From positions 1 to 64,000 of the forward strand of contig NZ_JBQHXR010000008.1 in NCBI RefSeq assembly GCF_052063365.1: a stretch of DNA of 64,000 bases. The letters run 5' to 3'. The number at the start of each line of letters is the position of its first letter. The first letter of the stretch is position 1. The position numbers and the translations under genes are program-made. The notes under the pieces are model-generated. The model worked only from the letters and a program-made list of their open reading frames with translations. It was not told the origin of the DNA and did no database searches. This DNA comes from Blautia sp. HCP3S3_G3. Lineage in GTDB: Bacteria > Bacillota > Clostridia > Lachnospirales > Lachnospiraceae. Positions 1 through 61,451 of this stretch are shown here, in pieces.

Positions 1-1
1 C

Positions 2-506: not shown

Positions 507-804
507 GGATGTTCCTTTTCTTTCGCATACAAAATCTCATGAAAGGTGGTGATGCCCGGGCCTCCCTGTCAGAATTCCTAATATTTGTATGCACGATCAT
601 TCCTGCAGGTCAAAAGAATGTTCAAAGCTGGCGCATTTTGCATCTTTTAGTACTTGCCGGTATGGCATCATCTATTTTCAGGCTACCACTGCGCCCATAA
701 AACCAAAAGCAGCCAGATGCACTCTGGGGAATTCGAGTGTACACGCTATAAAAAATTTTGAAGCCGTATTTTCTGAATTTATCATTCTGTCAAATTACTT
801 AAGT

Positions 805-838
805 TGACCACATTGGTGCCTGTCACCAATGTGGTCAG
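805..838. repeat. Perfect 13-bp inverted repeat (gaccacattggtg-cctgtc-caccaatgtggtc). Candidate terminator or IS-end hairpin.
   Basis: Palindrome read directly from the sequence. Confidence 0.5.
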
Positions 839-1166
839 TAAATGTACGTGGTTCCTTTGATTTTTTTACGAGTTATCCCAGCTGAATCAGATGGTATTTT
901 TACTTTAAAATCGAGATACATGGCGCTCACCTTTCGAGAGTTAATTACTTCCCCTTTGTTCTACCATATTTACTCAATTTTTCAAGCAAAATCGCAGTAT
1001 TTTCAATGAAATCAAGGGATTTTTACCATCTTCATTGCCTTTTCTGACACAAACGAGAGTTAATTATTATGGAAGTTCACACAGAAGAGGTGCAACCAAT
1101 TGGCTGCACCTCCATGTTCTTGATTGTTTTTGTGGGTACTTGTATCTGCGAAATATTAAATTTCCG

Positions 1167-1203
1167 CTTGACATTAACCTATATTGGTGGTAAATGTATA
1201 GAT
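1167..1203 (+). promoter_or_regulatory. Putative sigma-A promoter (TTGACA, 17 bp, TAAATG) upstream of the 1245 gene. RBS GGAGGCGG at 1226.
   Basis: -35/-10-like hexamers with 17-bp spacing. A GGAGG RBS lies 8 nt before the ATG. Confidence 0.35.
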
Positions 1204-1244
1204 GCAGTTAATCACCAATTTGGATTATTTGGAGGCGGACTCAA

Positions 1245-2087
1245 ATGAGCTTGTATCGCACAATAATTCCCAAGTATACATTTATTCCATATGACTTTCC
1301 TACTTCTAGAGATGGAAAATATCATTGTCTGCTTGATGATGGGCAGATTTTGAGGTCTAGAAGGGAACAACTCGGTCTATCAGTTTATCAGGTTGCTGAA
1401 ATGGCGGGTATACAATTCAGTCAATATCAGCGTCTTGAATCAGGGGAACGTTTCTTTTCCGGATGTTCTATGAAAATTGGACTCTCTGTGTGTGCCGTTC
1501 TTTTGCTTGACCCTTTTGAGTTCTTCGACGTCAATGTTAAACAGCCAAAACCGGATATCATGATGCCACATGAGGTTTTTGACGGACTCCAAGATGAAAT
1601 GCCACGCCCCAAAAAAGTTGGTAGAAAGCCTATTAGGAGGGACATTATGACTGTATACTTTAATCACCCATCTTTTTCAATCATCATCCCCCGCGAAGTA
1701 TTAGTGGCTCTCGGCAAGCCCGCATATATCCAAATGATGTGGAATCTTAACGAAAAACGGCTTCTGCTTCATGTTATAGATTCTGACGCAGAGCAAGCAT
1801 TTGATATTCCACCTCATCTTTACGATAGTTGTACCGCTCTTGCTTTTCCTCGTGCTGCTATATTTTCAGAGCTAAAAGAAGGACTTGGGTGGGATACCGA
1901 GCTTTATGCAGCGGAATGTCGGATTGTCTATGATAAAACCAATGAACTTTTTATTCTCTGCGATTTAAACACCGCACAAAAATCCGAAAAAATAGTGGGA
2001 CCTTTTGCTATTCCGACATGCATTGATGATGGCATGGATGATGACGAAATCTTAGATGAGGATGGTGAAGAAAATGAAGAGCTATAA
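1245..2087 (+). CDS. DNA-binding protein: N-terminal XRE-type HTH, central AbrB/MazE-like swapped-hairpin-like segment, acidic C-terminal tail
   Basis: LRSRREQLGLSVYQVAEMAGIQFSQYQRLESGER is an HTH_3 pattern. SIIIPREVLVALGKPAYIQMMW resembles an AbrB-type hairpin. The C-terminus is DDGMDDDEILDEDGEENEEL. Confidence 0.45.
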   Translation: MSLYRTIIPKYTFIPYDFPTSRDGKYHCLLDDGQILRSRREQLGLSVYQVAEMAGIQFSQYQRLESGERFFSGCSMKIGLSVCAVLLLDPFEFFDVNVKQPKPDIMMPHEVFDGLQDEMPRPKKVGRKPIRRDIMTVYFNHPSFSIIIPREVLVALGKPAYIQMMWNLNEKRLLLHVIDSDAEQAFDIPPHLYDSCTALAFPRAAIFSELKEGLGWDTELYAAECRIVYDKTNELFILCDLNTAQKSEKIVGPFAIPTCIDDGMDDDEILDEDGEENEEL

Positions 2088-3522
2088 AGTGACAGTCCCG
2101 AATCGTCATAATCTCCCGCAGTCATTTGGTGTGAATGAATACGATGATCATATTAAACTGAGTGCCTATCTATCCAATAACATAAATAGTGTAGATATCC
2201 CTACGCAGATATCCGAGAAGCCGGTGACGGTAGTCGGAGCCGACTGTTTCTTCAATCATGGAGAAATCACAGAAATCAGTTTCCCGGATACTCTGACCAA
2301 TATAGAGACACAGGCTTTTGCTATGTGCAAGGGGATCAAGGAATTGATTCTTCCCGGCAGCATCAAAGAGATTGAAAGTTATGCATTTCGTGACTGTACG
2401 GGCCTGAAGAAGATTATTCTTCCTTCCAGTCTTAAAACATTGAAGCAAGGAACATTTGCGTTTACCTATTTACCGGATGATGTAAAGATTACTTTAAACG
2501 AGGGGCTCGAAACTATTCAATCCAAAGTTTTCTCCGGAGGAGGGGTTAATTTAGGCTTCACTGTAAAGCTGCCGTCTACTGTCAAACAGTTGGCTGACGA
2601 CGCCTTTGATCCTGGAATTAGGGTAATCCGCATTAACTATGATAAGCACATTCCTCTACAACATTCTGTAAAAGCCGCACAGGTTATACGAGAAGCTATA
2701 TCTGAGAGTGATCTGAATGACCACATTGATACAAGCATCGATTTGCTCCGTAGAATTAAGCAAGAGCATAACTTAGGTCTTTTGACTGATCACGAATGCG
2801 AAAAGCTTTTCTATGAGGAGTTTTGCAAAGGCTTTTTCGAATATCTAAAAAGCAAAAGACTTAAAGCCAAAATATGCGATAACAATTGGAACCTGTTCAT
2901 AAAAGATTACAACCTTTGGAGAGAAGGAAACACTACTCCATCCAACGCGAATGAGTCGTGGCTATTCTATGTCGATTCTGAGCCAGCCAGCCAGACAGAC
3001 AAAACATGCTTTTTCAAATTGATGGAGTCTTATTCTGTTCCTCTTGCATACTTCAAGCCTATTTCCGATAACTGCGTTTTTCCAAGTCTTCACTACGATG
3101 TGTATGGGACGTATATGGCAGGGACGGTCAAGTTTGAATTAATTGATGATAGTGGCCTGTACACATGTAATAATCCGATAGACAAGCAATTTGTTTTAAC
3201 CGATAAGACCGGCCTGAAAGCGTATATAGCTGTAAATAGACCTGCTAAAAAAGATGAACTACATAATCTTATGACTACTGCGTTTATCGGAACCGGTACG
3301 ATTGATGGATATACAAGTTCTCGAGCCCGTGAGATTTACATCTCCATTAAGGAACAACAAACAGTATGGTTTTGGTTTGTTGTTGGGAGCGATGATCTTG
3401 ATGTCCTCCATCACTTTCCACTTTGGGATTCCTACAACGCTTTTGAAACAGAGCGGCAGGAGAAAATACATGAGCACATTCTTAATCTAATGTATCGAAT
3501 CGATAATGAAAGCCATGAATGA
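2074..3522 (+). CDS. Cytoplasmic leucine-rich-repeat (BspA-type LRR) protein with a ~300-aa C-terminal domain of unknown function
   Basis: Repeated ...I.LP.S...I...AF..C..L..I motifs (ISFPDTLTNIETQAFAMCKGIKELILPGSIKEIESYAFRDCTGLKKIILPSSLKTL). No signal peptide. It overlaps the upstream gene, so the two are probably translationally coupled. Confidence 0.5.
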   Translation: MKSYKVTVPNRHNLPQSFGVNEYDDHIKLSAYLSNNINSVDIPTQISEKPVTVVGADCFFNHGEITEISFPDTLTNIETQAFAMCKGIKELILPGSIKEIESYAFRDCTGLKKIILPSSLKTLKQGTFAFTYLPDDVKITLNEGLETIQSKVFSGGGVNLGFTVKLPSTVKQLADDAFDPGIRVIRINYDKHIPLQHSVKAAQVIREAISESDLNDHIDTSIDLLRRIKQEHNLGLLTDHECEKLFYEEFCKGFFEYLKSKRLKAKICDNNWNLFIKDYNLWREGNTTPSNANESWLFYVDSEPASQTDKTCFFKLMESYSVPLAYFKPISDNCVFPSLHYDVYGTYMAGTVKFELIDDSGLYTCNNPIDKQFVLTDKTGLKAYIAVNRPAKKDELHNLMTTAFIGTGTIDGYTSSRAREIYISIKEQQTVWFWFVVGSDDLDVLHHFPLWDSYNAFETERQEKIHEHILNLMYRIDNESHE

Positions 3523-3537
3523 AACGGAGGACGAAGA

Positions 3538-3855
3538 ATGTACAGATTTGACTACTCTTTGGACGATTATCTCCGTGTAACCGATAATTGCGCCAATCAC
3601 GTTAAAATGCTCCTCCAGACCCGCTATGATGAACTGGAGCATATTCGTGAAGCTATCAATGATCGTTATCCATTCGAAGATCTGTTTCTGAAACAAGCCG
3701 AAGTGGATGATGAAAAATTTCTAATTCACAGACTTTTGGAATATTTGGATTCATGCGTTCTTGAGCGAAGGGAATTCCGAAGGGAAATGTTTTCAGATGC
3801 CGCAGGAAGTGCAACTGGTACAACAGATGATAGCGGATCAAGAGAGTCAGTCTGA
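3538..3855 (+). CDS. Hypothetical 105-aa protein, third gene of the plus-strand operon
   Basis: RBS GGAGGACGAAGAATG. No recognisable motifs. Confidence 0.4.
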   Translation: MYRFDYSLDDYLRVTDNCANHVKMLLQTRYDELEHIREAINDRYPFEDLFLKQAEVDDEKFLIHRLLEYLDSCVLERREFRREMFSDAAGSATGTTDDSGSRESV

Positions 3856-4458
3856 AAGCCACTTTTCTTTGTCCTCATCTGTTAAGTGGCTTGAAAAATT
3901 GCACGTATTTCTCGATTCTCCATAATCATTTATCATGGGCTCTTGATAAATGTTTCGACCAGCAATTACCTCCCACAGAGTAAGCAACACTTCTTTCTTG
4001 CATTTTCCTCCCAGATTTCGAATGCGAGAAAGTGGGCCAAACTCCAATATATCACGAACTGTGTGTATTCCAGCACGTTTCAAGCAATTTGTGCTACGAA
4101 CGCTCATGTCCAGTTCCTCCACAGTCATACTCATTACGTTTTGATCGACCTCAAAAATAACCCCTTCAATGCTATCTCTAAACTCCATAATCTGACACGC
4201 CATTTCCTGCTGCCTTGACTTTACAATATCACGGAAATTCGGGCAATACTTGTTTAGCCAGGCTTCGGACTCTTCCTGCGTTTCACATTGTTCAAAATCA
4301 TCCAGGTCCTCTTGATCAACATTTTTACTGAGGTCCCTACCTACATTCACCTCGAGTTCTTTCCGGACGATGTCCGAGAAGAGTTTTCCCTCTTCAACGG
4401 TCTCAAAACGGATTCCATGCCGCTCAAGTTCCTTTTGGTCGAATTCATATTTGTTCAA
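3847..4458 (-). CDS. Hypothetical protein with a C-terminal RNA polymerase alpha-subunit CTD-like helix-hairpin-helix domain (alphaCTD-like, residues ~108-165)
   Basis: [30 protein letters not shown]...[12 protein letters not shown] is near-identical to bacterial RpoA CTD (e.g. B. subtilis [24 protein letters not shown]...VRNLGRKSLEEV). The N-terminal 105 aa are unrelated to RpoA. Confidence 0.5.
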   Translation of the reverse strand: [203 protein letters not shown]

Positions 4459-4473
4459 TAGATTCTCCTCCTA

Positions 4474-6759
4474 TCAAATTGATTTTTTTAATTCCTGCCT
4501 GCGGACGGACCACTCTTCAAGGAATGCTGGTATCACTAGGTGAGAGCGTTCTTCCATAATCTTTTGAGGATTGTTCAGAAGATTCAGGATTTCTGAAGAG
4601 GTCAGCGCGCGCAAATCCATGTAGGGCTTTACAAGTCGTTCGATGCTGCTCTGTTCAATGTAAGCTGCAACAGCTTCGCCATCTTTCTGCATCTTCGGCT
4701 TATCAATCGTTAAAGTGAACGGAGCTGTTTGTCGCCCATCTACGCTCAATGTAGTTATGGCATTGAAAGCATCAAGTCTCGCCAAATTCACTTTCATATT
4801 TGGATCGTCAAAACGAACTGCTGCCGTATGTGCATCTCTGGGAGAAAGACGAAAAGCGCTGAAGTTCGCAGAATTTGACTCCAGAGCATCACGAATTTCA
4901 GCCGTCAGTTGACCCGTATGCTGATGACATAGCACCATAGCCAACCCGAACTTTCTAGACTCCGCCAGCATTCTTGGCATAGGATTCGTTTGGAACAAAG
5001 CTGCCTCATCTACCACCACAAAGTGCGTTTTGTCCCGTTCATGCCGAGCCATGGCAGCATTCCATAGCTTCATAAGTAGAAGCGTTCCAACAATCCGAGC
5101 TGCGTGAGTACCGATATTGGGAGATGCCAAATCAATCAGCGTTACCGTATCGGTATCGATTGAATTCGTGAAGTCTAAGGCATTTGCCCCAGCCCCTAGA
5201 GTCTTACGTAGCTGCTCTACAGAGATAAGCCTTTGAAACTTGCACAAATACCAATTGAGCGTTGCCTGAAAATCATTGCTTTTGTCTGTGCCATATTCCT
5301 GCTTAATAGTCTCCACAAGCTCAGGGTAGCGGTTGACGATTGCTTTACTTACTTTCAACATATTATCCTGGCTCTGGGAAATAACAGCAATGCTCTCCAA
5401 AGAAGCTCTTCTGCCGAGGAAGGCAATTGACGCCTTAGCAAATGTTGAGAACCACCGTTCCCAGCGTGGTCCGACGAAACATTCTCCCGGAGGGTTGAAA
5501 ATATCTCCGAAGAGCTCGCATAGATCGCTAATATTCCGTTCTTCCTTGGACGGATCATCACTGTCCCAAATATTCAATGGTACCGGATGCTCTGCGTCAC
5601 CGATTCGGACAACGCGCACACGTTCAGCATACTGCTTTGGAATCATTCTGAGAAGCAAGTCAATAGTACTTCCGTGCGGATCAAAAAACGTCAGACCATG
5701 ACCCTTTTCGATTGCACTCAGAATGAGCTTCGTAAGGAGTGTGGATTTGCCCGTTCCGGTTTGCCCAACGATCTGATAATGGCGTTTTATATCTGTTTCA
5801 CCGATGGTAATCCTCCTACAAATACCTGCAGTATCGACTGCTTTGCCAATTTCGACTGCGCCATGGCTCTTAGTGTTCCGATGGCTTGCAGGTATCTTCT
5901 TTACGGGTTCTTCACAGACCTGAAGACCAATAGTTGTTTCATGGATTTCAGGTTCCATCATTAGAATTCTGGCTGCATAGTCGGGTAAGATCTGGGCCTC
6001 AAATAAAGGATTTCTCCAAATTTCTTCAGCTTTCTTGGTTTCAATATCACCGACATATCTACACTTAGCCCCTTGAACTGCCTCCTCCAATACTGTCTTT
6101 AAGCGAATAGAAGGAGAAGTAGGAAGAAGGAGGAGGACTCGCATTTTTACCGGTCTCCCTAGGTAGTCCCTAACTGAAATACCATCCACATCATAACTAT
6201 GCAGCGTGTTCTTGCGGCAGAAAGTCTGTTCCTCGTCTGTAGCCGGACCTACGACAACTCGCATGACGGCTCCAGTATCTCGCAGCACGCTGACGAGCTC
6301 AGCAAATATTTCGGAGTAATGTGTTGGCCATTTAGAAATGCTATCATCTTTAGTGGTAGGGGTTCCACAGTTAAAGCCAATAATCGCTCTTGTCTGTCCT
6401 GTCTCTGTTATAGGAAGATAGACCTCATATAGCTGTGTTAGACTAGAGACAGAGGTTTTCAAGACTCCCTTGACAGTTTTTCCGGTCTTTTCAGCACACC
6501 ATCTTAGTTCTTTCTCCGTAAATTCTTCTGAACCAAAGAGACTAAGAATCGCAAGACCCTTTGTTGGAATCTCAATCTGCCAGCCAACGAAGCTTTCTTC
6601 ATTCATGACAGATGCACACTTCACCATTCGGGAAGACATTCTCTCAGAAAGCAGCTTCTTTCCTTCACTCTTTATAAGGCTCTCCAAACGGACAGCGACT
6701 GCTGTGTTGTTGGGATAGTAATTACTCTTCATCTGTAGCACCTCCTTAGTAGGCTTCAC
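4474..6759 (-). CDS. Soluble HerA/VirB4/FtsK-clade P-loop ATPase (DUF87/AAA_10-like) with ~330-aa N-terminal domain of unknown function
   Basis: Walker A GQTGTGKST followed by FDPHGS (the HerA/T4CP DPxGE motif). Walker B HFVVVDEAALF. ESRKFGLAMVLCHQHTGQL matches the EGRKYG...Q sensor/arginine-finger motif of HerA/VirB4. No TM segments. Confidence 0.6.
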   Translation of the reverse strand: MKPTKEVLQMKSNYYPNNTAVAVRLESLIKSEGKKLLSERMSSRMVKCASVMNEESFVGWQIEIPTKGLAILSLFGSEEFTEKELRWCAEKTGKTVKGVLKTSVSSLTQLYEVYLPITETGQTRAIIGFNCGTPTTKDDSISKWPTHYSEIFAELVSVLRDTGAVMRVVVGPATDEEQTFCRKNTLHSYDVDGISVRDYLGRPVKMRVLLLLPTSPSIRLKTVLEEAVQGAKCRYVGDIETKKAEEIWRNPLFEAQILPDYAARILMMEPEIHETTIGLQVCEEPVKKIPASHRNTKSHGAVEIGKAVDTAGICRRITIGETDIKRHYQIVGQTGTGKSTLLTKLILSAIEKGHGLTFFDPHGSTIDLLLRMIPKQYAERVRVVRIGDAEHPVPLNIWDSDDPSKEERNISDLCELFGDIFNPPGECFVGPRWERWFSTFAKASIAFLGRRASLESIAVISQSQDNMLKVSKAIVNRYPELVETIKQEYGTDKSNDFQATLNWYLCKFQRLISVEQLRKTLGAGANALDFTNSIDTDTVTLIDLASPNIGTHAARIVGTLLLMKLWNAAMARHERDKTHFVVVDEAALFQTNPMPRMLAESRKFGLAMVLCHQHTGQLTAEIRDALESNSANFSAFRLSPRDAHTAAVRFDDPNMKVNLARLDAFNAITTLSVDGRQTAPFTLTIDKPKMQKDGEAVAAYIEQSSIERLVKPYMDLRALTSSEILNLLNNPQKIMEERSHLVIPAFLEEWSVRRQELKKSI

Positions 6760-7042
6760 GTTCTAACATATAATCATTGATAACGGACACGAGATGTTTA
6801 GTCACTTCATAAAGTCCAGAGGATCCCGTTCTACCAACATGGAAGCAGCCAAGGGAGGCCGGGGTCCAGCGACGAACATCATCTATTGCTACTCCGTCTT
6901 TAAGGAGATCATATAGCAACCCGTTATGTCTATGATATATGAGATATTCACGCTGGCCGGAGAAATCGAGATAGATATTGAATCCGTCTCTGTTTCCATT
7001 GTTAACTGCGCACACTCTAATGTTTCTGTTATTTTTCTTCAT
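6746..7042 (-). CDS. Hypothetical 98-aa protein, first gene of the minus-strand 3-gene operon. Its 3-prime end overlaps the ATPase gene start.
   Basis: ORF with a 14-bp overlap to the downstream ATPase gene. No motifs recognised. Confidence 0.4.
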   Translation of the reverse strand: MKKNNRNIRVCAVNNGNRDGFNIYLDFSGQREYLIYHRHNGLLYDLLKDGVAIDDVRRWTPASLGCFHVGRTGSSGLYEVTKHLVSVINDYMLEREAY

Positions 7043-7237
7043 TTACTGATACCTCCACATCACAGGACTTCGTTTTTCTCCTATTCATTAAACGTAGCCT
7101 GCTAATGTTTATCGTATTTGAAATATCATTTTTGCACGTGATGGCGGCGCCCCGACTGTCTTCAGCCGCAATCGGTCGCTGTTGCCGAACTCTACGCCCC
7201 GGCAACCGGGCGATGACCACAATATGAAATTGTCAAG

Positions 7238-7340
7238 GTGCAGGTGGAAAACAAAAAAGCCGATGCTCTGATAAACAACCAAATGGGTAGACTTTCCCTC
7301 CGGGAAATCATTTAGTCACTTATCAGAGCATCGGCTCTAA
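7238..7340 (-). terminator. Long hairpin (17-bp stem agccgatgctctgataa / ttatcagagcatcggct) followed on the minus strand by TTTTTTGTTTTCC. Candidate terminator for transcripts arriving from the CRISPR/IS side.
   Basis: Inverted repeat and T-tract read directly. The ~45-nt loop contains a mini-hairpin tttccc/gggaaa. Confidence 0.4.
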
Positions 7341-7435
7341 ACATTTTTAATTTGTGTTTAGACTATATCATAGGCTGGTGCTTTTGTCAACAGGTGAATT
7401 TAAAATCTGTTTTTCTCCTGTTAATCACGGTGATA

Positions 7436-7626
7436 AAATGTACAAAAATCACGCTCAAAAAATGTACAATCAACCTCCAATAAATTAGTATCAGTTTATT
7501 GGAGGAATAAGAATGATTGGAGATAAATGGTTGAGCATAAGAAACGACAGAAAAAAAAGAATGAGTTATTCCGAAATAGGCAGGAAATATAACATCGATC
7601 GCCGTACCGCAAAGGTAAGGTACAAC
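7436..7626 (+). mobile_element. IS21-like element left end (repeated TGTACAA motifs) plus N-terminal HTH fragment of an IstA-like transposase, truncated at a partial CRISPR repeat
   Basis: tgtacaaaaatcac ... aatgtacaatcaacc direct repeats, then GGAGG RBS and ATG at 7513 encoding MIGDKWLSIRNDRKKRMSYSEIGRKYNIDRRTAK (HTH, IstA-like). The reading frame runs into the half repeat aaaggtaaggtacaac at 7611. Confidence 0.35.
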
Positions 7627-7821
7627 ATGAGCGGTTGATCGGTTCGAAGAATCGTGACTGGGAGTGTCAATTCCTCATAGGTAAGGTACAACTTTCCAGT
7701 CAATCTAAACGCGCCTTCAAGAAAGGTGTGTCAATTCCTCATAGGTAAGGTACAACGAAGCCCATAAGCGCTTCACTTCCGACGACGCAATCGTGTCAAT
7801 TCCTCATAGGTAAGGTACAAC
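7611..7821 (-). CRISPR. CRISPR array 1: one partial (16-bp) repeat plus three full 29-bp repeats GTGTCAATTCCTCATAGGTAAGGTACAAC, written on the plus strand. Spacers are 37, 35 and 36 bp. Transcribed on the minus strand.
   Basis: Exact repeats at 7664-7692, 7728-7756 and 7793-7821. The conserved leader abuts the 7821 end. The reverse complement GTTGTACCTTACCTATGAGGAATTGACAC resembles clostridial type I-B repeats (GTTGAACCTTAAC...). Confidence 0.9.
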
Positions 7822-8215
7822 AACAGTATTTTTGCTGTCTTCCCATTTATATTACCTCTTTTTTCCTCTGCTTACAAGCATTTTCTCCCAAAAAGTCGGT
7901 CAATCTCCTTTTCATCACACCCTACAAATGCCTAAATTTAAAGCTTTCCTATTATTTGCAAATAGAGGTCTGAGGTTGACCGACTTTTTCCTTCTTTCAA
8001 TTCCCTTTTTCTATATATTTTGCTCGATTTTTATAAAAAATCATCCCTTCCAAATAAATCCAATCTTCCCTCAAGCCTTGTTTTTCAAGCATTCGAAGCA
8101 CCTTTTAACTCTATATGAGGTTGACCGACTTTTTCCACACATTGTGTTCAGGAAATCGAAAATAGAAATATGTAATCTGAAAATAATATGAAATAAAGCC
8201 TAATTGTATTGTAAT
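7822..8215 (-). promoter_or_regulatory. CRISPR leader 1 (~390 bp, AT-rich). It contains three copies of a TTGACCGACTTTTT motif.
   Basis: ~95% identical to 9746-10115, which flanks array 2 on the same side. Motif copies at 7890-7903 (inverted), 7971-7990 and 8117-8136. Confidence 0.6.
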
Positions 8216-8221
8216 GGTAAC

Positions 8222-8262
8222 AGGCGGCAATGCTGTAGATTCGCATCGCCGCCTGCATTTTC
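8222..8262 (-). terminator. Hairpin (caggcggcaatgc...gcatcgccgcctg) just downstream of the GNAT gene stop. Candidate terminator.
   Basis: 13-bp stem with one mismatch, flanked by T-rich sequence on both strands. Confidence 0.4.
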
Positions 8263-8267
8263 GTTTA

Positions 8268-8894
8268 TCAGAAAATCTGACCTTCGAGTTTTAGTTTTTC
8301 TTTAGCAGGAAACTCTTTATCGAATTCTTCTGCTTTTTCTTCGTCCACAAAGTAGCATTCGGGTGGAGCGTACTCGCCGGTAATGCCATCAAGATAGCCT
8401 TCCTCCAACTCTTTACAGAGGAAGAACGATGCATCTGCGCCCTCGGGCAGTCCGTGGTACCGAATGCCGAATTTGCTTGCGTAATCAAAGCCGCTTTTAC
8501 CGTAGAAATCGATATTTCCCTCAAAGCAAAGCGCTTTGATGCCAAATTCTTTTGCGCGTTCTAAAGAATAATCCAGCAGTAATTTGCCGTAACCCTGTCG
8601 TTTCCATTCCGGCGCTATGCAAATCGGTCCCATTGCGGCAATGGGGATCTCCCTGCCGTCATCCGCCTTAATAACCGCTCGCACAAACACATTCTGTCCG
8701 ATGATTTTGCCGTCCTTTTCCAAAACGAACTTCAGTTCAGGAATGAAATCGGGGTAATTTCTCATTTGATTCAGAACATAATGCTCCAGACAGCCGGGAC
8801 GATAAACATTCCAAAATGCTTCTCTTACTAAATTCTCAACCTCTCGTTGTTCTTCTTTTCTTTCTAAACGAATTATAATGTCATTTTTATTCAT
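8268..8894 (-). CDS. GNAT family N-acetyltransferase
   Basis: Likely start MNKNDIIIRLERKEE with RBS AGGAGGAAAAACA. The acetyl-CoA-binding-type motif RQGYGKLLLDYSLERAKEFG (Q/RxxGxG/A) is present. The longer ORF-track start is probably spurious. Confidence 0.7.
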   Translation of the reverse strand: MNKNDIIIRLERKEEQREVENLVREAFWNVYRPGCLEHYVLNQMRNYPDFIPELKFVLEKDGKIIGQNVFVRAVIKADDGREIPIAAMGPICIAPEWKRQGYGKLLLDYSLERAKEFGIKALCFEGNIDFYGKSGFDYASKFGIRYHGLPEGADASFFLCKELEEGYLDGITGEYAPPECYFVDEEKAEEFDKEFPAKEKLKLEGQIF

Positions 8895-9115
8895 TGTTTT
8901 TCCTCCTGAAAATTGTTGACCGCAATATGGGAGGTTTGCGTGGAAATTGTATTTACGCCAACCTCCCGTCAGCGCACAATCTCCGGTTGCATGATTGTTT
9001 TCTTCAAAAAGCAATCTCCTTAAAATATTATTATAATCAAGCCTTTCGGCAGATTATCTGTGTATATACAAAATCAATTCGGGATCTGCACCGTTTTCGC
9101 TGTATGTGCAGATAA

Positions 9116-9144
9116 GAGTTTCGTGCCCCTGAACTCAATGTTTG
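9116..9144. repeat. 28-bp direct repeat agtttcgtgcccctgaactcaatgtttg, copy 1 (copy 2 at 10566-10593)
   Basis: Exact 28-bp match between the two loci. The two copies flank array 2, leader 2 and the Rpn fragment. Confidence 0.8.
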
Positions 9145-9305
9145 TTCGTAACATGAATGAACGCTAAATGCTACCTGAACACAATCTCCATGTATGGATC
9201 GGGATTTTAGCACAATATCCACCAAATCACCTAGTGGGATAGTGATTGCTGAATAGTTACAACATTACATACATTTAGAATATTTCCTCTTAATATTTGA
9301 ACTAC

Positions 9306-9745
9306 CTCATAGGTAAAGTATAACGTAATTCCGGCAATTGAAAATGCGTGGATTGTATAGTATCAATTCCTCATAGGTAAGGTACAACAATAGTTTCAAG
9401 AGCAAAAGATCAGCTGATCTCTCGTGTCAATTCCTCATAGGTAAGGTACAACATGCATTTTATCCCAGAAAGGACGGTGAAAAAGTATGACTAGTAAACA
9501 GTGTCAATTCCTCATAGGTAAGGTACAACTGGAACCGAAGGATCCGAATGCTGCTCCGCAGGGACAGGTGTGTCAATTCCTCATAGGTAAGGTACAACGT
9601 TTTTACTTCGAGCGTCGTGCGCTGATGATCGGTGGCGTGTCAATTCCTCATAGGTAAGGTACAACGGTTGAACCGAATTGCATTTATGTTCAAGCTCCAT
9701 ATTGAGTGTCAATTCCTCATAGGTAAGGTACAACAACAGTATTTC
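9306..9745 (-). CRISPR. CRISPR array 2: degenerate terminal repeat (9306-9335), one 1-mismatch repeat (9371-9399) and five exact 29-bp repeats. Spacers are 35, 35, 48, 40, 38 and 40 bp. Same repeat as array 1. Transcribed on the minus strand.
   Basis: Repeats at 9435-9463, 9512-9540, 9581-9609, 9648-9676 and 9717-9745. The degenerate repeats sit at the end opposite the conserved leader. Confidence 0.9.
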
Positions 9746-10115
9746 TGCTGTCTTCTCATTTATATTACCTCTTTTTTCCTCTGCTTACAAGCATTTTCTC
9801 CCAAAAAGTCGGTCAATCTCCTTTTCATCACACCCTACAAATGCCTAAATTTAAAGCTTTTCTATTATTTGCAAATAGAGATTTGAGGTTGACCGACTTT
9901 TTCCTTCTTTCAATTCCTTTTTTCTATATATTCTGCTCGATTTTTATAAAAAATCATCCTTTCCAAATAAATCCAATCTTCCCTCAAACCTTGTTTTTCA
10001 AGCATTCGAAGCACCTTTCTACTTTAAATGAGGTTGACCGACTTTTTCCACACATTGTGTTCAGGGATTGAAAATAAAAATATGCAATCTTAAAATAATG
10101 TGAAACAAGGGAACA
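9746..10115 (-). promoter_or_regulatory. CRISPR leader 2, near-identical to leader 1, with the same three TTGACCGACTTTTT motif copies
   Basis: Motif copies at 9803-9816 (inverted), 9885-9904 and 10031-10050. Similarity to leader 1 is lost after ~10115. Confidence 0.6.
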
Positions 10116-10173
10116 GAAACCTCGACTCAAAGAGTCAATGAGCCAAGTGATCCTGTCCCCTATTTCATATCTT

Positions 10174-10692
10174 TCATTTCTCATCTGTACTTTGAGCAGC
10201 CGCATTTTTAAGATAAAAGCGCAGAACATCAAGATCTTTTTCTTCAAAGATTTTTTCGCGTAGCTTTTCCGGTACTATTCCCAAATCAGATAACAGATCA
10301 ATAATATCTTCCGCTTTACCTTCCGCTTTTTCTTCATCGAGTATTTCTCTAAACTGCATATAGCGTCCCTCCATTTCACTGCTTTTTATGACATCCTCTA
10401 CCGCTTTCTGAAGACGATTAATAAAGTTATCCCGGCAGGCAGTGCCAGTATTACAGTGACCTGACTCAACATATTCCAGAAAATTTACAAGACCCTCGGA
10501 TACCTCTGCTTTATTCTTTCCCCTGGTGTTGAGGAAAATAGTGTGGCTACCGTCATTAAGACAGTAGTTTCGTGCCCCTGAACTCAATGTTTGGGATATT
10601 GTTTCCATTGCCGTCAGGTTCAAAGAATACCGGTGTATTATCAAAATGATTCTTAAGGATGTCCCGCTCTTCCAGTATTTCCAGCGTACCAT
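10174..10692 (-). pseudogene. Rpn-family (YhgA-like, PD-(D/E)XK putative transposase/recombination-promoting nuclease) C-terminal fragment
   Basis: NDGSHTIFLNTRGKNKAEVSEGLVNFLEYVE...RYMQFREILDEEKAEGKAEDIIDLLSDLGIVPEKLREKIFEEKDLDVLRFYL matches the conserved C-terminal region of TIGR01784/Rpn proteins. The N-terminal nuclease core is absent. The 28-bp repeat copy 2 lies at the homology boundary. Confidence 0.5.
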
Positions 10693-10905
10693 TTTCTCTT
10701 TCGGCTTTTGCTGTCTGCGTGCGAAGCGTAATCCTCTGAATCAGGGAATGCCTTCCGTCGCCCATAATTCCAAAAAAGATACAGGCGAATACGAAACCGA
10801 ATAAAAAGAGGGGGTTCCGGATTAAAATGACAGAAGGAACTGGACAGTAATGTGGCAGCTATCGTATAAAGCAGCGGTTCAGCCATCCATGGACGGGATG
10901 TTTTT

Positions 10906-11457
10906 TTACGCTCTTTTGATACAGCAATCCGTCCGGTCTGTTCCTTCCCTTGTCACGGTTCCATAGACGGGCCTGTATACAAGATAATAGGGGAGATAAT
11001 ATCCCTTAAAATTTCCCATGCCGGAAACGATACTTCTTCCTTCCGGTGTATTCTCATGCTGATGTCCCCAGTCCAGCATCCGCTTTCTTGCTTCCTCTTT
11101 TGTAATAAAAAATGGAATGATCAGATCCGGCATCTGTCTTTCATCGGTAAAGCTGTTATGAACCAGTTTGCTTCCGCAAAAATCGCATGTTACAGAAACC
11201 TCTCCTTCCGGAAAGATTACATGCGCTCCACAGGATGGACAGGTACATTCCTCAAATTGTTCGCTTTCTTCCGGTTTCATTGAATTCTGTTTCTGCAGTT
11301 CTCTCCAGTGAAGAACCTCATTTTTCGCTTCCTGAATCCCGGATTCTCTCCCGCAATGCGGACACCGATACGTCTGATGAAGGATATCAAACCCGGCAGG
11401 AGAACCACAATATTTACAGAAGATCCGAACCGGTTCCTTATGTATCATTTCAGACAC
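10906..11457 (-). CDS. Zinc-ribbon protein, C-terminally truncated paralog of the 363-aa gene at 17569-18660. Marks the island boundary.
   Basis: Double CxxC pairs (CKYCGS...CPHCG; CPSCG...CDFCGS) and PDLIIPFFITKEEARKRMLDWG parallel PDYVIPFKLDKKAAKEAYYKHL in the paralog. The homology stops ~180 aa before the paralog C-terminus. Confidence 0.5.
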   Translation of the reverse strand: MSEMIHKEPVRIFCKYCGSPAGFDILHQTYRCPHCGRESGIQEAKNEVLHWRELQKQNSMKPEESEQFEECTCPSCGAHVIFPEGEVSVTCDFCGSKLVHNSFTDERQMPDLIIPFFITKEEARKRMLDWGHQHENTPEGRSIVSGMGNFKGYYLPYYLVYRPVYGTVTREGTDRTDCCIKRA

Positions 11458-11579
11458 TTTTCCACCTCCCCGTTAAATTAATAATTCGGGTCCCAAAGGT
11501 CATGTTTTTTCATGCAAGAATGAAACACATGACCTTTTGACCTTTGTATCATAATAATGCACATAAGACATTACTTTCA

Positions 11580-13268
11580 TCAATACGGAAGGATGTCCAT
11601 CCAGTCGGGAGATCCGTCTTTTCTGTATGCGACAACAAAATGTCCTATTTCTGTTCCGCTGAAATAATTTACAACAATCACATTATCTTCAACGATGATC
11701 TCATATGGCCAGTAAACATCATTATTATCCGGATCTGCCCACCAGAGAATTGTTCCATCCTCAGCGATTGCAACAATTTCTGCTCCATAATAGCCTGCAG
11801 CATACATCGTTCCGTCTTCATCCGAGGCCAGGCACACAGAACCAGTAAGATGCAGCTCCTCGTAGGATCTTAACCATAATACTTCACCGGTTTCCATATC
11901 GATCATATGCAGTCCCTGAAGTGAATTGCCGATGATCACTCCCGGCCTCTCCCCTGTAACTGTAACAAAGGCATCTGTCGCAGTCAGTTCTGTAACCTCA
12001 TTGACCCCTGTTATATAACCCCAGAGCGGTTCATTTTCGCTGTTATAACAGCCGACACAAAGGGTTTCTCCGTTGTCATAGGAACGTACAGCTACGACAT
12101 GATACCGGTCATTACTGTAATTTAAAATTTCATTGCCTGAAGCCATAAGTTCCTCATAGTACAGAATACTATTGTAAAAATATCCGTTGTCACTATACCG
12201 GCTATCACCTTCCCCGGAATAAATTTCATCGCTGAAGTATTCCAGATAATCAGAAAGGACATAACCGTACAGACCATTATATTCTCCAAATACGAATTCA
12301 TCGGAATACCGCACACAATTGTGAACCAGAGCTCCAAGCGGGATTTTTATCAGACGATTGGAATTTACATCAGGATACTCTCTCAGTGACACCCATTCAT
12401 TGCAGTTCACAACCTTCATAATTGTAAGAATATTTTCTTCCCCTTCGTACTCTCCTTCATATTCCGCTTCTGTATCAATGCCATAGCCTTCCACCACGTC
12501 ATAGGTTGCGTCGTATACAAATGGAGCCTCCCATGGAACACTTATCGTTCCGTCATAAAGAGAGATCATCGGTACCCATGTCAATACTTCTCCCTGAGAA
12601 TCTTCAATGGTGACCTGACAGTCTGCGACGCATTCACTTACATTGCAGCGCAGGAGAATCGGTTCGCCGGAATCGCTGTGGTATAAAACCTCTCCTGCTT
12701 CGCCGCTGTAATTGTTGGATTCATCAATCATATATTCATGTACCGTCAAAGAAGCCTTTTCGTCACACGGATAAATACAGTAAAGTTCATTGCCTCCCTC
12801 AATCTCTACAATGTTTGCGTCAGGAATTGTTTTCAGAAACGTGCATTCTTCTGCACAGCCGCTTAAATCCAGCACCTCTTCCAGGTAAGCACTGTCGGAA
12901 GCGATGTTTCCCGCTCCTCCATTTACATATCCGAGAAAAAGTACACCGCAGATGCTGCCTGTATTTAATGCGGTCTGCCTGTGAAGGGACAGATTCCGGT
13001 ATTCTTCTGTTTCAACAGCAACAGTCGCTGTATCGACTGCACTGTCCGGTTCTGTCGTACTGTTCGTAACAGCTGAACCTTTCGTACCATTACTTACCTG
13101 TGCAAAAACGGAACTGATACACAGAATGCAGGAACCGATGAATACCCCTGTAAATATGAATATACTTTTGTGGGTTCTGTACCTGCTATTCCTTAAATCC
13201 ATACATAAACTCAAAAATCTGGTCATTTTACCTTTCCTTTCATGGTAAGCATCAAACATTATTCTCAC
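11580..13268 (-). CDS. Membrane-anchored or secreted protein with C-terminal beta-propeller-like repeats
   Basis: N-terminal hydrophobic segment IFIFTGVFIGSCILCISSVFA. Repeated DGT.LW/GEVLW motifs near the C-terminus. Confidence 0.35.
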   Translation of the reverse strand: MRIMFDAYHERKGKMTRFLSLCMDLRNSRYRTHKSIFIFTGVFIGSCILCISSVFAQVSNGTKGSAVTNSTTEPDSAVDTATVAVETEEYRNLSLHRQTALNTGSICGVLFLGYVNGGAGNIASDSAYLEEVLDLSGCAEECTFLKTIPDANIVEIEGGNELYCIYPCDEKASLTVHEYMIDESNNYSGEAGEVLYHSDSGEPILLRCNVSECVADCQVTIEDSQGEVLTWVPMISLYDGTISVPWEAPFVYDATYDVVEGYGIDTEAEYEGEYEGEENILTIMKVVNCNEWVSLREYPDVNSNRLIKIPLGALVHNCVRYSDEFVFGEYNGLYGYVLSDYLEYFSDEIYSGEGDSRYSDNGYFYNSILYYEELMASGNEILNYSNDRYHVVAVRSYDNGETLCVGCYNSENEPLWGYITGVNEVTELTATDAFVTVTGERPGVIIGNSLQGLHMIDMETGEVLWLRSYEELHLTGSVCLASDEDGTMYAAGYYGAEIVAIAEDGTILWWADPDNNDVYWPYEIIVEDNVIVVNYFSGTEIGHFVVAYRKDGSPDWMDILPY

Positions 13269-13381
13269 ATGTCTGATTTTTTATCATATCCATTATGATA
13301 AATAAATCAGTTCAGCCGGAGAATCAACTCCGGCTGAATCATTCAACTTAAGCATCCTTTTCACTCGAATCGATCTGCTTT

Positions 13382-16300
13382 TCAGGCGTCTCCTATTCGT
13401 TCGAACAATACCTTTTCTCCGTTTTCTTCCACACAGAGCATGCCATCTTCCGTCAATGTAAGAGTCTGGTTATCAATATGACCGATTCCGTTCTCGAATG
13501 TCCATGGGGCCTCCTTAACCTCTCCATTGTCCGTAATCTGTACGGTACCGTCTGCATTCAGTGTCATCTGCATTACCATGCCTAAATCAGCCAGATTTAA
13601 TTCCATATCTTCTGCTACAATTTTTACTGCATTCCATACACCTGTGAAAGAAGCCATATCTCCTCCCGCATCTGCACTTGGAGTCTGTCCCTCAGAAGAC
13701 GTTTCTTTCTCTTCATCCGGTGTTTCCTGAACGGCATCCTGTTTCTCTGTGCCTGCGTCAGGTTTCTCTGCTTTCTTCGCCGGTACCATACTGCTGTCAT
13801 ATGTCACATCATACGGGGACATGAGTTCTATTACATTCGGTTTTTCAGGATCCAAAACCGTGCAGTCTTCTTTTATTACGTGACTTTCATCCGCAACCGG
13901 TCCCAGATTTCCTTTTTCCCAGACACTGTAGAACGCTCCGAAGGCTTCATCTGATGCGGAAGCCGGAAGCTTCATAACAAGATCTGCAGCACAGTCTCCG
14001 GAGCAGCTATCCAGAGTATCAAACACTTCTGCATCGGTAAACTCAAAGCAGATGACAGACAGTGAAGTACAACCATAGAAAGCGCTGGCGGAGAAGCTTT
14101 CCACACCGTCACGAACATGGATTTCCTTCAGGTTTGTACATTCTCTGAAAGCAGTGGCGCCAATTTGTTTTGCATTGACTACCAACGATTCCATACCACA
14201 GCCTCTGAAGCAGTCTTCACCCACATAGTCTGTTTTTCCTTTGTACCATGCCTGAGTAAGTGAGCTGCAGCCATCAAATAAATAGTTGTCAAGCATTTTC
14301 GTTCCGTTTACAAAGACCACCGTTTTCAGTGACCGGTTGTTATAGAAAGTGCCTCTTCCGGTATTTTCAAGCGGTCCGTAACAGATCACCGTTTCAAGCT
14401 GCTGACAGTACTCAAAGGCAGAGTCTTCGATGTCTGTTACTGTTTCCGGAATCACAAGGGAACGAAGATGCAGCCAGTCATCCTGATTTGTATCCATTTC
14501 TGTATCTGTGTAATCACGGGCACATTCAAATGCATTCCTTGCGATCTTCTTTACTTCGACACCGCCGATCGTGCGCGGAATGACAACGTCGATATCTGTT
14601 CCGGTATACCCGGTGACGGTTCCTGTTTCCGCATCAAAGTCGAAATATTCTTCTGATGCAGGAATAAACGGCATTTTTGCAAACGCACTTTCTTCACTTT
14701 CACGTACGAGGGCATCATACCACGGATAATCCAGAACATCATTCCATGCGGCAAGCTGCTCATCTGTCGCATAATCACTCATTCGGATACCTTCAAGCCC
14801 GATTCCGGACAGTGCTTCCACATTTACTTCAAGATCTGCAGGAATCACCAGACTTGTGATCTGGGTTCCTTCAAAAGCACAGGCTCCGATCGAAGTAACA
14901 GATTCCGAAAGCGTTATTGCTTCCAGATTCTGACAATTTTTAAAGGCTCCGGCTCCGATTGTCGTAACAGAATCAGGAATCTTTATCTCTTTTAGATTCT
15001 GACAATTTTCAAAGGCTCCGGCTCCGATTGTAGTGACCGAATCAGGAATCTTTATCTCGTTCAGATTCTGACAATTACGGAATGCTCCATCTCCAATGGT
15101 TGTTACGGAATCAAACAGATCGACAGTTTCCACTACACTGTCTGCAAATGCTTCACTGCCGATATAAGTAAATACATCATTATACGGAACGGAAAAATAT
15201 TTTACCGTCTGATTGCCCTTAAATGCACCATCTGCCAGACCCGTCACCGGTTTATACTCGGAGCCGTCAACACTGTATTCGTCATATGGACGGATATTTG
15301 TCATTTCACCAGTGTAGCCTGTCATATAAAAGGATGCTCCGTCAGGACTTTCAATATAAGTGTCAAGATTATTGTCGCAATACTGAACATCCGGATTCTG
15401 GTTGCGCCATACGCGGCAGCTGAGTCCCAGATTATCTACGATCTGCTGAACATCCAGCATTTCCTGCTTCGTACATTTGGTATTCAGATCAATATTCGCG
15501 AGTAATGTGCATTCTGCAAATGCAGACTCCGCAATATACGGAAGCTCTGCTGCATCGATATAGACATAGCTTATGCTGCAGGATGCAAAAGCATTTTCTC
15601 CGATATACTTTACAGTAGAAGGCATATAAACCCTGTTCATCCACTGACAATTATAAAAAGCATTGTCACCAATATTGGTCAAACCTTCCGGCAGATTGAG
15701 TGAACCCTCAACAGCCGCATAAACAAATGCTTCATCTCCTATATATTCAAGACCTTCCGGAAGTTCCAGTGCAAACCCTCTGTAAGAATGGCAAAAAGCA
15801 CGATCCCCTACACTTTTCAGTGTAGATGGAATTTTTACATACAGCAGTGTCGCTGCGTCCATAAATGCTTCATCTTCAATTGTTGTCAGTCCTTCCGGAA
15901 GTGTTACATAGCAAAGATAACGATTTCCCTGAAAAGCATTGGGTCCGATGGAAGTGACCGGAACCCCGTCAATTGCTTCCGGTACATCCAGTCTTCCGGA
16001 AAAACCACTGTATTGGGTGATTGTGCCGGTTGCTGCGTCAAATGTGATATTTTCAAGGTCAGAGACCGGTTCCTGTCTGACTGCATTCTGGCCGCTTGAC
16101 TGTACACTTAACATGCTGCCGGCCGCTTCAAGAGCTGCAGTATAGGCTTCTACCTGGTCATCCGGAACATAGGCAACCGCATCCTGCGCAAGTTCTGTAA
16201 ATGCACCCGGAGCAATTACCGGACATTCGCCCTCGAACGTTACGGAAGTAATTCCGCTACAGAAACCGAACGCTCCTTTGTCAATATAGCATACTCCGGA

Positions 16301-16672
16301 TGGTATGATAATTTCTGTAAGTGCAGGATCACTGGCAAAACAATTCTGTCCGATAACAAGAAGGCTCTGCGGAAGAGAGACACTTGAAAGTGAACTGCAC
16401 CATCCTCCCGCGCTGTTTTCCAGTTGTTTCACTGTTTCCGGAAATGTAATGGATGTAATACTATCCACCCCGTTAAATGCATCTGATCCGATAATATCAA
16501 CCGTACATCCCTGGATGGTATCGGGTATCACGACGTCTCCGCCTGCACCGCTGTATCCGTCCAGTGTATAATCGACAGTATCAAATGACCATACAGATTC
16601 ATCCTCCGCCTGAACTGATACACTCAGCATTATCACCAGCAGGATCATCGGTATCCATAATTGTTTTTTCAT
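13382..16672 (-). CDS. Large secreted cell-surface protein with BspA-type leucine-rich repeats
   Basis: Signal peptide MKKQLWIPMILLVIMLSVSVQA. Many IPDSVTTIGAGAFENCQNLKEIKIP-type 23-aa repeats. Confidence 0.6.
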   Translation of the reverse strand: MKKQLWIPMILLVIMLSVSVQAEDESVWSFDTVDYTLDGYSGAGGDVVIPDTIQGCTVDIIGSDAFNGVDSITSITFPETVKQLENSAGGWCSSLSSVSLPQSLLVIGQNCFASDPALTEIIIPSGVCYIDKGAFGFCSGITSVTFEGECPVIAPGAFTELAQDAVAYVPDDQVEAYTAALEAAGSMLSVQSSGQNAVRQEPVSDLENITFDAATGTITQYSGFSGRLDVPEAIDGVPVTSIGPNAFQGNRYLCYVTLPEGLTTIEDEAFMDAATLLYVKIPSTLKSVGDRAFCHSYRGFALELPEGLEYIGDEAFVYAAVEGSLNLPEGLTNIGDNAFYNCQWMNRVYMPSTVKYIGENAFASCSISYVYIDAAELPYIAESAFAECTLLANIDLNTKCTKQEMLDVQQIVDNLGLSCRVWRNQNPDVQYCDNNLDTYIESPDGASFYMTGYTGEMTNIRPYDEYSVDGSEYKPVTGLADGAFKGNQTVKYFSVPYNDVFTYIGSEAFADSVVETVDLFDSVTTIGDGAFRNCQNLNEIKIPDSVTTIGAGAFENCQNLKEIKIPDSVTTIGAGAFKNCQNLEAITLSESVTSIGACAFEGTQITSLVIPADLEVNVEALSGIGLEGIRMSDYATDEQLAAWNDVLDYPWYDALVRESEESAFAKMPFIPASEEYFDFDAETGTVTGYTGTDIDVVIPRTIGGVEVKKIARNAFECARDYTDTEMDTNQDDWLHLRSLVIPETVTDIEDSAFEYCQQLETVICYGPLENTGRGTFYNNRSLKTVVFVNGTKMLDNYLFDGCSSLTQAWYKGKTDYVGEDCFRGCGMESLVVNAKQIGATAFRECTNLKEIHVRDGVESFSASAFYGCTSLSVICFEFTDAEVFDTLDSCSGDCAADLVMKLPASASDEAFGAFYSVWEKGNLGPVADESHVIKEDCTVLDPEKPNVIELMSPYDVTYDSSMVPAKKAEKPDAGTEKQDAVQETPDEEKETSSEGQTPSADAGGDMASFTGVWNAVKIVAEDMELNLADLGMVMQMTLNADGTVQITDNGEVKEAPWTFENGIGHIDNQTLTLTEDGMLCVEENGEKVLFERIGDA
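14880..15120. repeat. Near-perfect 69-bp tandem DNA repeats encoding LRR units inside the 1096-aa surface protein gene
   Basis: Consecutive ~69-bp units (ttctgacaattttcaaaggctccggctccgattgt...gaatcaggaatctttatctc) are almost identical. Confidence 0.7.
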
Positions 16673-16731
16673 ACTTTATTCCCTCCTGATCTTTCTTTCG
16701 CTGAAGACGTCCCGGAGGATTTCTGCAGTCA

Positions 16732-17556: not shown

Positions 17557-17568
17557 GATCTTCCCCTC

Positions 17569-18660: not shown

Positions 18661-18754
18661 CCGGTATCATCTCCTTCCCGTACACTTCCTGTCATCTTAT
18701 CATCTTCTGCTTTGGTGCAGAAACTTTATATGTACAAGTTTTAAGATATCATTT

Positions 18755-19822: not shown

Positions 19823-19912
19823 TAGTCCTCCTTTTATAAAATCTCCTTTTATAAGATTTACTTTTATAATATCTCTTTCTAAACAATATATCTTACGAAA
19901 AATTTCCTGCTT

Positions 19913-21367: not shown

Positions 21368-21384
21368 GGTGATTCCTCCTTCAT

Positions 21385-21735: not shown

Positions 21736-21817
21736 CCTGTAAAAATCGCTGCTGTAATTTTTCCTTTTTTCATCGTTTCCTCCTTTCTTCTAGAGACGGT
21801 TTATTCTTTTTTCGAAG

Positions 21818-61348: not shown

Positions 61349-61451
61349 ACAATTCACACTCCGATTCTCATTCCGGCTGCTGCCGTATTCTAGAATTAGT
61401 ATTTCCAGGTTTTTCTTCGGTATACATGTGTCATGTGCAGTGTATCAGGAT

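Follow-up and report, generated by a model that had tools for sequence, protein, structure and literature searches.

Two CRISPR arrays and their leaders

The first 64,000 nucleotides of contig NZ_JBQHXR010000008.1 of Blautia sp. HCP3S3_G3 (hereafter the window) hold two CRISPR arrays. Their common 29-nt repeat, GTGTCAATTCCTCATAGGTAAGGTACAAC on the plus strand, is found in nine copies with at most one mismatch, grouped in two clusters and starting at 7664, 7728, 7793, 9360 (one mismatch), 9424, 9501, 9570, 9637 and 9706; none is expected from 100 shuffles. Array 1 (7610–7821, minus strand) consists of three perfect repeats, at 7793, 7728 and 7664, and a truncated terminal repeat at 7610–7626, of which about 17 nt are left on the leader-proximal side. 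Array 2 (9296–9734, minus strand) has seven repeats: perfect ones at 9706, 9637, 9570, 9501 and 9424, one with a single mismatch at 9360, and a degenerate terminal copy at 9296–9324 that matches in 21 of 29 bases. Counted from the leader end, the spacers measure 36, 35 and 37 nt in array 1 (n = 3) and 40, 38, 40, 48, 35 and 35 nt in array 2 (n = 6). No two of the nine spacers, 35–48 nt long, are alike.

Both features are true, small CRISPR arrays in the chromosome of a gut Blautia: near-identical direct repeats within the usual 23–50 nt alternate with unique spacers of similar length, and an AT-rich, promoter-bearing leader on one side is opposed by a degenerate repeat at the other end. In an Rfam scan of 6800–11000, CRISPR-DR2 matches stayed below threshold (30 against a gathering score of 37 bits). 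Two arrays with an identical repeat had already been recognized in the first-pass annotation of this DNA; they stand, with the limits corrected to the coordinates given above.

Leader 1 (7822–8193, minus strand, 372 nt) and leader 2 (9735–10105, minus strand, 371 nt, 32% G+C) are the same at 352 of 372 positions (94.6%). Their G+C content is 32–33%, against 43.8% for the whole window. The first-pass annotation had given each array an AT-rich leader of about 390 bp, the two being about 95% identical; the pairing and the AT-richness hold, while the length comes down to about 372 nt and the identity to the value stated here. Over about 310 aligned nt, the window leaders share 68–73% identity with the leaders of arrays that adjoin CRISPR-associated (cas) genes in other genomes and metagenomes.

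In leader 2, a −35 element (TTGTAA) is placed at 9785–9790 and a −10 element (TAATAT) at 9762–9767; the counterparts in leader 1 are at 7872–7877 and 7849–7854. The promoter was read from an alignment, in which TTGwAA-17-TAwTAT is conserved about 30 nt upstream of the first repeat in the window and in cas-linked leaders; a simple consensus promoter scan stayed under threshold at the site. An 18-nt motif, AAAAAGTCGGTCAAyCTC, keeps constant distances to the first repeat: two direct copies are placed at −307 and −163 and an inverted one at −80. It occupies 10026–10049, 9881–9904 and, inverted, 9803–9821 in leader 2, and 8113–8136, 7968–7991 and 7890–7908 in leader 1. Both window leaders retain the promoter pair and all motif copies. 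The motif is also present in the leaders of L001–L004, L006, L018, L019, L028 and L032–L034, where L numbers designate the loci and contigs recovered in our look-ups. It might serve in leader recognition, either as a binding site or through a structure.

Other features of the leader regions were also recorded. A second leader family goes with the same repeat and does not have the 18-nt motif. Both arms of the −163/−80 motif pair are altered together in L006 (GTCGGTCGGTCTC and GAGATCGACCGAC). Close to the arrays, a further short motif, ATTGWGTTCAGGR, is repeated in either orientation, at 8140–8155, 10053–10068 and 9185–9200 of the window and at 11385–11480 of L018. In the latter, two perfect copies of 14 nt, separated by about 62 nt, make up an inverted repeat directly upstream of the leader. 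The outer arm of this inverted repeat is lost in the window, and a junction element termed e28, described below, holds a related core.

The two leaders lie on the same side of their arrays, with the degenerate repeat (9296–9324) and the truncated repeat (7610–7626) at the opposite ends; for both arrays, minus-strand transcription follows from this. On that strand the repeat reads GTTGTACCTTACCTATGAGGAATTGACAC and has the 3′ end typical of Cas6 processing, ...ATTGACAC. Arrays of related loci have this same orientation with respect to their cas6, cas2 and RT-cas1 genes, RT standing for reverse transcriptase. The position of the degenerate repeats and the minus-strand transcription were thus correctly called in the first pass.

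CRISPR-Cas system that the repeat belongs to

An exact-match scan found the repeat in two species-representative genomes and in 12 metagenome-contig stretches, and protein look-ups added more loci, for a metagenome total above 20. Wherever it has cas genes as neighbours, these encode Cas6, Cas2, an RT-Cas1 fusion and effectors of type III-D-like systems. In L001/L003/L004, L005, L007, L008, L009, L011, L012 and L016, the neighbours of the exact 29-mer include RT-Cas1 and Cas2 (tblastn E = 1e-51 to 1e-143) as well as Cas6. Complete loci are seen in L028 and L033, where effector genes are accompanied by cas6, a leader, an array with 11 copies of the identical repeat, cas2 and RT-cas1. In other genomes and in metagenomes, the repeat of the window adjoins genes for Cas10-like and Csx10-like proteins and other RAMPs in addition to Cas6, RT-Cas1 and Cas2.

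The fusion protein, of about 632 amino acids (aa), joins a group-II-intron-type reverse transcriptase to Cas1. The linked Cas6 matches TIGR01877 above its cut-off, and the linked type III RAMP of TIGR03986 scores 279–305 bits against a cut-off of 161; Cas2 and Cas1 also pass their NCBIfam cut-offs. Further linked type III genes encode a Csx10-like RAMP, a Csx7-like RAMP and a short protein with a Cas10 palm2 domain, and weak matches to Csx19 and Csx20 occur at the same loci. Since the Csx10, Csx19 and Cas10 matches fall under the NCBIfam cut-offs, we name the subtype III-D-like and do not take it as proven III-D. This type of locus is widespread in gut Lachnospiraceae. In L028, a type I-C cluster (Cas3, Cas5d, Csd1, Cas7; 15684–21899) lies about 4 kb downstream of the complete III-D-like/RT-Cas1 locus.

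Clostridial RT-Cas1 fusions mostly accompany systems of type III-D (Toro et al. 2019, PMC6753606). The window resembles the type III-D RT-Cas1 loci of Clostridia and Lachnospiraceae (PMC6753606; Silas et al. 2017, PMC5513706; for Vibrio vulnificus, PMC6821258) in several respects: its repeat is identical to that of the Cas6/Cas2/RT-Cas1/RAMP loci, its leaders are homologous, its spacer lengths are heterogeneous and its protospacers escape detection. It differs from them in that arrays, leaders and a few cas2 codons are kept, but no effector, Cas6 or RT-Cas1 is encoded in the 64 kb.

In the first-pass annotation the repeat was classed as type I-B-like, which would make these orphan arrays for a type I-B Cascade and Cas3 encoded elsewhere. 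The repeat, 29 nt long and unstructured, does end in the manner of Cas6-processed I-B repeats. As in clostridial type I-B arrays, it belongs to the Cas6-type class of 29–30 nt whose 3′ end reads ATTGA.AC, and the Cas1 domain found with it has a relationship to Cas1b: that of the linked RT-Cas1 scores 312.7 bits against the NCBIfam cut-off of 304.1 for type I-B Cas1b. The general class of the repeat and the passing of this cut-off account for the resemblance to I-B. Cross-use of the arrays is also conceivable. However, the neighbouring cas genes at all recovered cas-linked loci are Cas6, Cas2, RT-Cas1, type III RAMPs and Cas10-like genes; none of these loci links the repeat to an I-B effector gene (Cas8b, Cas7, Cas5 or Cas3), and the only type I genes in the vicinity are those of type I-C in L028, several kb away. 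We regard a I-B origin as very improbable, and the arrays should be typed as III-D-like/RT-Cas1, not I-B.

Spacer lengths were also described in the first pass as unusually heterogeneous. The cas-linked arrays with the same repeat have spacers of 34–60 nt, and the 35–48 nt of the window are for that reason typical rather than anomalous. As for spacer content, blastn of the nine spacers against 50,697 phage and 72,556 plasmid records gave no match for any of them, and six spacer cores used as exact patterns were absent from IMG/VR. No self-target lies within the window, nor is any spacer shared with the 138 spacers of related loci. In the collections searched, then, no spacer matches a foreign genetic element. 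Missing protospacers are the usual outcome for RT-linked arrays (PMC5513706), so that their absence does not exclude membership in a CRISPR system. Within single cas-linked arrays, identical spacers recur (L003 1768–2499, L005 3406–4581, L007 5457–5837 and L014 42–493); in the L003 array, spacers 7, 9 and 10 are one same 44-mer. This recurrence suggests that one abundant source was sampled several times, or that spacers were duplicated locally.

A cas2 remnant and the junctions around the arrays

Pfam and NCBIfam scans of about 65 open reading frames (ORFs) spanning 153–63977 detected no Cas protein, and tblastn of the window with RT-Cas1, Cas2 and Cas6 of related loci gave chance-level matches only. 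No remnant of cas6 or RT-cas1 was seen upstream of the window leaders. The statement of the first-pass annotation that the 64 kb contain no cas gene is thereby confirmed; of effector and adaptation genes, the locus holds nothing beyond the start of cas2 at 9260–9292. The window ORFs encode ordinary functions of a Lachnospiraceae chromosome, such as FtsK, PhoH, YbeY, fumarase, microcompartment shell proteins, alanine racemase and BspA-type leucine-rich repeat (LRR) surface proteins. A cas operon just past the window edge is unlikely, because an element of an insertion sequence (IS) of the IS4 family forms the left edge, where our view ends in the window, and housekeeping genes fill the right 50 kb.

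The cas2 remnant (9260–9292, minus strand) directly follows the terminal repeat of array 2 and comprises a ribosome-binding site, AAGAGGA, and ATGTATGTAATGTTG, which encodes MYVML and a stop. It is homologous to the start of intact cas2 genes and of a truncated cas2 found in another strain of the same species (L018 and L019). The flanks of the latter are 97–99% identical to the window, and its leader is 98% identical to leader 2. Its array has two spacers only, neither of them in the window. After the degenerate last repeat follows an ORF, MYVILTYDVQQLRVAKVHKVCRKYLKHIQRSVFEGNISA, that represents the first 39 codons of Cas2, 79% identical to Cas2 of the metagenome-assembled genome (MAG) LOHA06. 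The fragment stops at an e28-like sequence adjoining an IS4-family end equal to window 822–560. The idea of free-standing orphan arrays is not borne out by these strains, since a cas2 start follows array 2 and the sister strain keeps 39 cas2 codons at that place.

A third strain variant comes from the species representative, the MAG of Blautia sp. SUG17 (L002), which is syntenic with window 8193–13947 at 96–99% identity. At the same chromosomal site it has a mini-array with one spacer, unlike those of the window; altogether, no spacer is shared between the window, L018/L019 and L002. The contigs L017 and L025 (run SRR33889071) are 100% identical to the window, and the window strain itself was seen only as Logan contigs of 9 kb and 1.3 kb from that run. 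Assemblies of the array region break at the duplicated leaders.

The intact layout, leader-array-cas2-RT-cas1-leader-array, is found in LOHA06 (L001 and L004) and in L033. In the window, the order is leader 2, array 2, cas2 stump, e28, the tail of another ORF, a GNAT gene, leader 1 and array 1. Judged by this comparison, the duplicated leaders would most simply be the two leaders of an intact-type locus. A PQQ-like protein beside the cas locus of L006 was considered as a counterpart of the 562-aa protein of the window, which would place both at the same site; the two are not homologous, and the match was rejected.

The slot between array 2 and leader 1, which houses cas2 and RT-cas1 in intact relatives, is occupied by the gene of a GNAT acetyltransferase (8268–8894, minus strand). 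Upstream of leader 2, where the relatives have cas6, lies an ORF fragment (10174–10566, minus strand). At the far end of array 1, a truncated helix-turn-helix (HTH) ORF (7513–7609, plus strand), preceded by a 24-nt tandem at 7423–7469, runs in frame into the cut repeat and marks the truncation point. Its match to HTH_28 is weak (E = 0.0036), and it may be an IS end; tblastn and blastn of the HTH/IS21-like region against the plasmid collection gave no match. The left edge of the window is the 3′ part of the IS4-family element (1–822, plus strand), whose homologues carry PF01609 and whose transposase is frameshifted, the frame being broken near 110. By eye, its end at 806–838 appears to adjoin a second, inverted IS end. 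The same IS4-family end is found directly beside the truncated cas2 in L018.

Of the flanking features named in the first pass, the GNAT gene and an IS4-family element are retained. The 41-aa IS fragment at 7513 is reduced to the weak HTH_28 match, and the Rpn fragment is unconfirmed: the Rpn label for 10174–10692 found no support in Pfam, NCBIfam, PADLOC or plasmid tblastn searches. An IS21-like label for a flanking fragment was likewise unsupported in the Pfam, NCBIfam, PADLOC and plasmid searches.

The element e28 is a 27-nt sequence, CAAACATTGAGTTCAGGGGCACGAAAC, with two copies in the window. Copy 1 (9118–9144, minus strand) lies at the break between the array 2 trailer and the GNAT segment. 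Copy 2 (10567–10593, minus strand) lies where the ORF fragment upstream of leader 2 meets a truncated gene for a membrane protein, a gene that L002 has in intact form. This second junction is common to at least seven contigs of the species (within L017–L024). Elsewhere, e28 occurs at 5064–5090, 6702–6728 and 6742–6768 of L002 and at about 12104–12125 of L018. It is present at every rearrangement junction round the arrays, and the bordering sequences are unrelated from copy to copy. Two copies in L002 flank a 1.6-kb segment with a GNAT gene and a 152-aa ORF that has no family match. The Rfam scan of 6800–11000 assigned e28 to no family. Candidate identities are a solo transposon or IS end, a Tn3-like inverted repeat, part of a gene and a recombination site. 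On a bolder and improbable reading, the arrays would still take up spacers and direct interference by way of a distant RT-Cas1/III-D locus, with a single adaptation module for several dispersed leader-array modules; e28, in turn, may be the site of an undescribed recombination system that swaps cassettes such as the GNAT gene in and out of CRISPR loci.

Compared with L018, the window has about 8.3 kb extra (about 832–9117) between the cas2 stump and the IS4 end. This segment holds array 1, leader 1, the GNAT gene, the HTH gene, an LRR protein, a protein resembling the RNA polymerase alpha C-terminal domain and a HerA/TrwB-like ATPase. One could thus imagine mini-arrays that travel on a prophage, an integrative and conjugative element or a plasmid remnant, and hijack host Cas proteins against competitors: array 1, leader 1 and the GNAT gene do share a strain-specific segment with the HTH gene, the ATPase and IS ends. 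Against this, the segment yielded no gene for an integrase, for replication or for phage structure, the exact repeat has 0 matches in 2.9 million viral contigs, and the chromosomal site of array 2 is conserved in several strains, with the remains of cas2 after the array. The leaders, moreover, are homologous to those of chromosomal cas-linked arrays. We consider such a mobile origin hardly credible.

Part of the extra segment, 1245–7042, is absent from L018 and encodes an XRE-type HTH protein, a BspA-LRR protein, a protein that combines DUF5663 with an RNA polymerase alpha C-terminal domain, and the ATPase. The latter has 761 aa and a 98-aa partner, with weak PADLOC matches to HerA and mad8. 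This part may be a fragment of a mobile element or of a defence island. Farther off, the window contains a MazF-like toxin gene (61001–61357) and two sets of in-frame coding tandem repeats, one of 36-nt units in the gene of a DUF4428 protein (18987–19198), the other of 12- and 24-nt units in the gene for an 837-aa protein (37304–37451).

Probable decay of the locus and possible service in trans

We propose that the two arrays are the remains of a type III-D-like CRISPR-Cas locus with Cas2 and an RT-Cas1 fusion, from which the neighbouring cas genes were deleted (probability about 0.8). Intact relatives have the order effector genes, cas6, leader, array, cas2, RT-cas1, leader, array. From such a state, the genes upstream of leader 2 would have been replaced by an unrelated ORF fragment, and cas2 would have been cut after its fifth codon, leaving unassigned sequence, e28 and the GNAT gene between array 2 and leader 1. 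Array 1 would have been cut inside a repeat, at its far end, by the HTH ORF fragment. Insertion sequences and recombination at e28 are the likely agents of these deletions. Each array is probably still transcribed from its conserved leader promoter. The transcripts would be cut to CRISPR RNAs with the 8-nt 5′ tag ATTGACAC, and used, only if a matching Cas6 and a type III effector are encoded elsewhere. Similarly, new spacers would be added only if another part of the genome encodes RT-Cas1 and Cas2 belonging to this family.

Decay of this type of locus is common. In related loci, RT-cas1 is frameshifted beside an IS (L001/L004), Cas1 fragments are split by an IS3-type element (L033, L034), and IS5-type elements also break RT-cas1 copies. 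As far as the sequence tells, the decay in Blautia is recent, since the leader promoters and the repeats are intact and spacer content differs between strains. Eight of the nine full repeats are perfect, while the leaders differ at about 19 of 372 positions (5.1%); the repeats must therefore have been renewed, or have been under selection, after the leaders diverged.

Several points weigh against this reconstruction. The cas2 remnant of the window is only about 33 nt long, and the next 114 nt (9145–9258) are not significantly cas2-like, with 203 of 2000 shuffles scoring as high; a degraded cas2 in these 114 nt was accordingly rejected. Intact cas2 or RT-cas1 of the same species was not recovered in the look-ups, and at the nucleotide level nothing matches the L018 cas2 fragment better than at 79%. 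Insertion sequences and e28 are named as deletion agents from the positions of the junctions alone. The distal 57 nt common to both window leaders match neither cas6 nor RT-cas1, and the leader-array modules may therefore be a later local duplication, not the original pair. Finally, the analysis spans 64 kb, and a relic is not separable from an array served in trans on the basis of the window alone.

These last two options, orphan arrays serviced in trans or relics, were both left standing in the first-pass annotation. An origin as free-standing orphans is contradicted by the cas2 stump, and between the two fates we favour the relic: it is probable, if far from certain, that the genome has no partner locus and that the arrays were recently orphaned. 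The other fate, in which these are working distant arrays that receive Cas6, effector, RT-Cas1 and Cas2 in trans from a compatible III-D-like locus elsewhere on the chromosome or on a plasmid, is a serious contender that we rank second. Under it, the arrays could at the same time be what is left of a second, decayed locus.

Perfect non-terminal repeats and the promoter and motifs kept in both leaders speak for service in trans. Relatives, too, often have more than one RT-cas1 copy or locus. In addition, spacer sets are wholly different in strains that share the upstream junction of e28, ORF fragment and leader, as expected if acquisition went on after the upstream cas genes were lost; independent and recent loss of cas2 and RT-cas1 in each strain, however, explains the spacer differences equally well. 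On the side of the relic, the SUG17 genome has the exact repeat only at its mini-array. Little weight attaches to this, since CRISPR loci are often missing from MAGs. The look-ups brought up no RT-Cas1 or Cas2 nearer than 79% to the Blautia cas2 remnant, and none from the samples of the strain. With 3 and 6 spacers, the arrays also have the shortness typical of arrays that lack a cas partner (PMC7145637).

Arrays without adjoining cas genes are common, and those in genomes devoid of cas are on average shorter than cas-adjacent arrays; arrays far from a cas cluster are usually of the subtype of that cluster (PMC7145637, PMC5294841). The Blautia arrays resemble the orphan and distant arrays on record (Zhang & Ye 2017, PMC5294841; Bernheim et al. 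2019, PMC7145637; CRISPR2 of Enterococcus faecalis, PMC5491264) in being short, without adjoining cas genes, typable by repeat, and either remnants or usable in trans. Most of those have been typed by repeat only, in contrast to the Blautia arrays with their cas2 stump: here the local loss of cas genes is visible, the stump being present in two strains and cut at different points.

The locus is a fresh instance of two known kinds, orphan arrays and clostridial RT-Cas1 III-D loci, with a decay history that is unusually legible. It represents ordinary decay of a CRISPR-Cas locus and leaves current understanding unchallenged. For annotation, arrays of this sort gain by being typed as III-D-like/RT-Cas1 and read as a decaying locus rather than as a stand-alone puzzle. 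They offer a snapshot of cas loss in which arrays, leaders and promoters are still intact, with 39 cas2 codons remaining in one strain and 5 in the other. If a distant partner locus does exist, RT-Cas1 adaptation acting in trans would have a natural test case in this strain.

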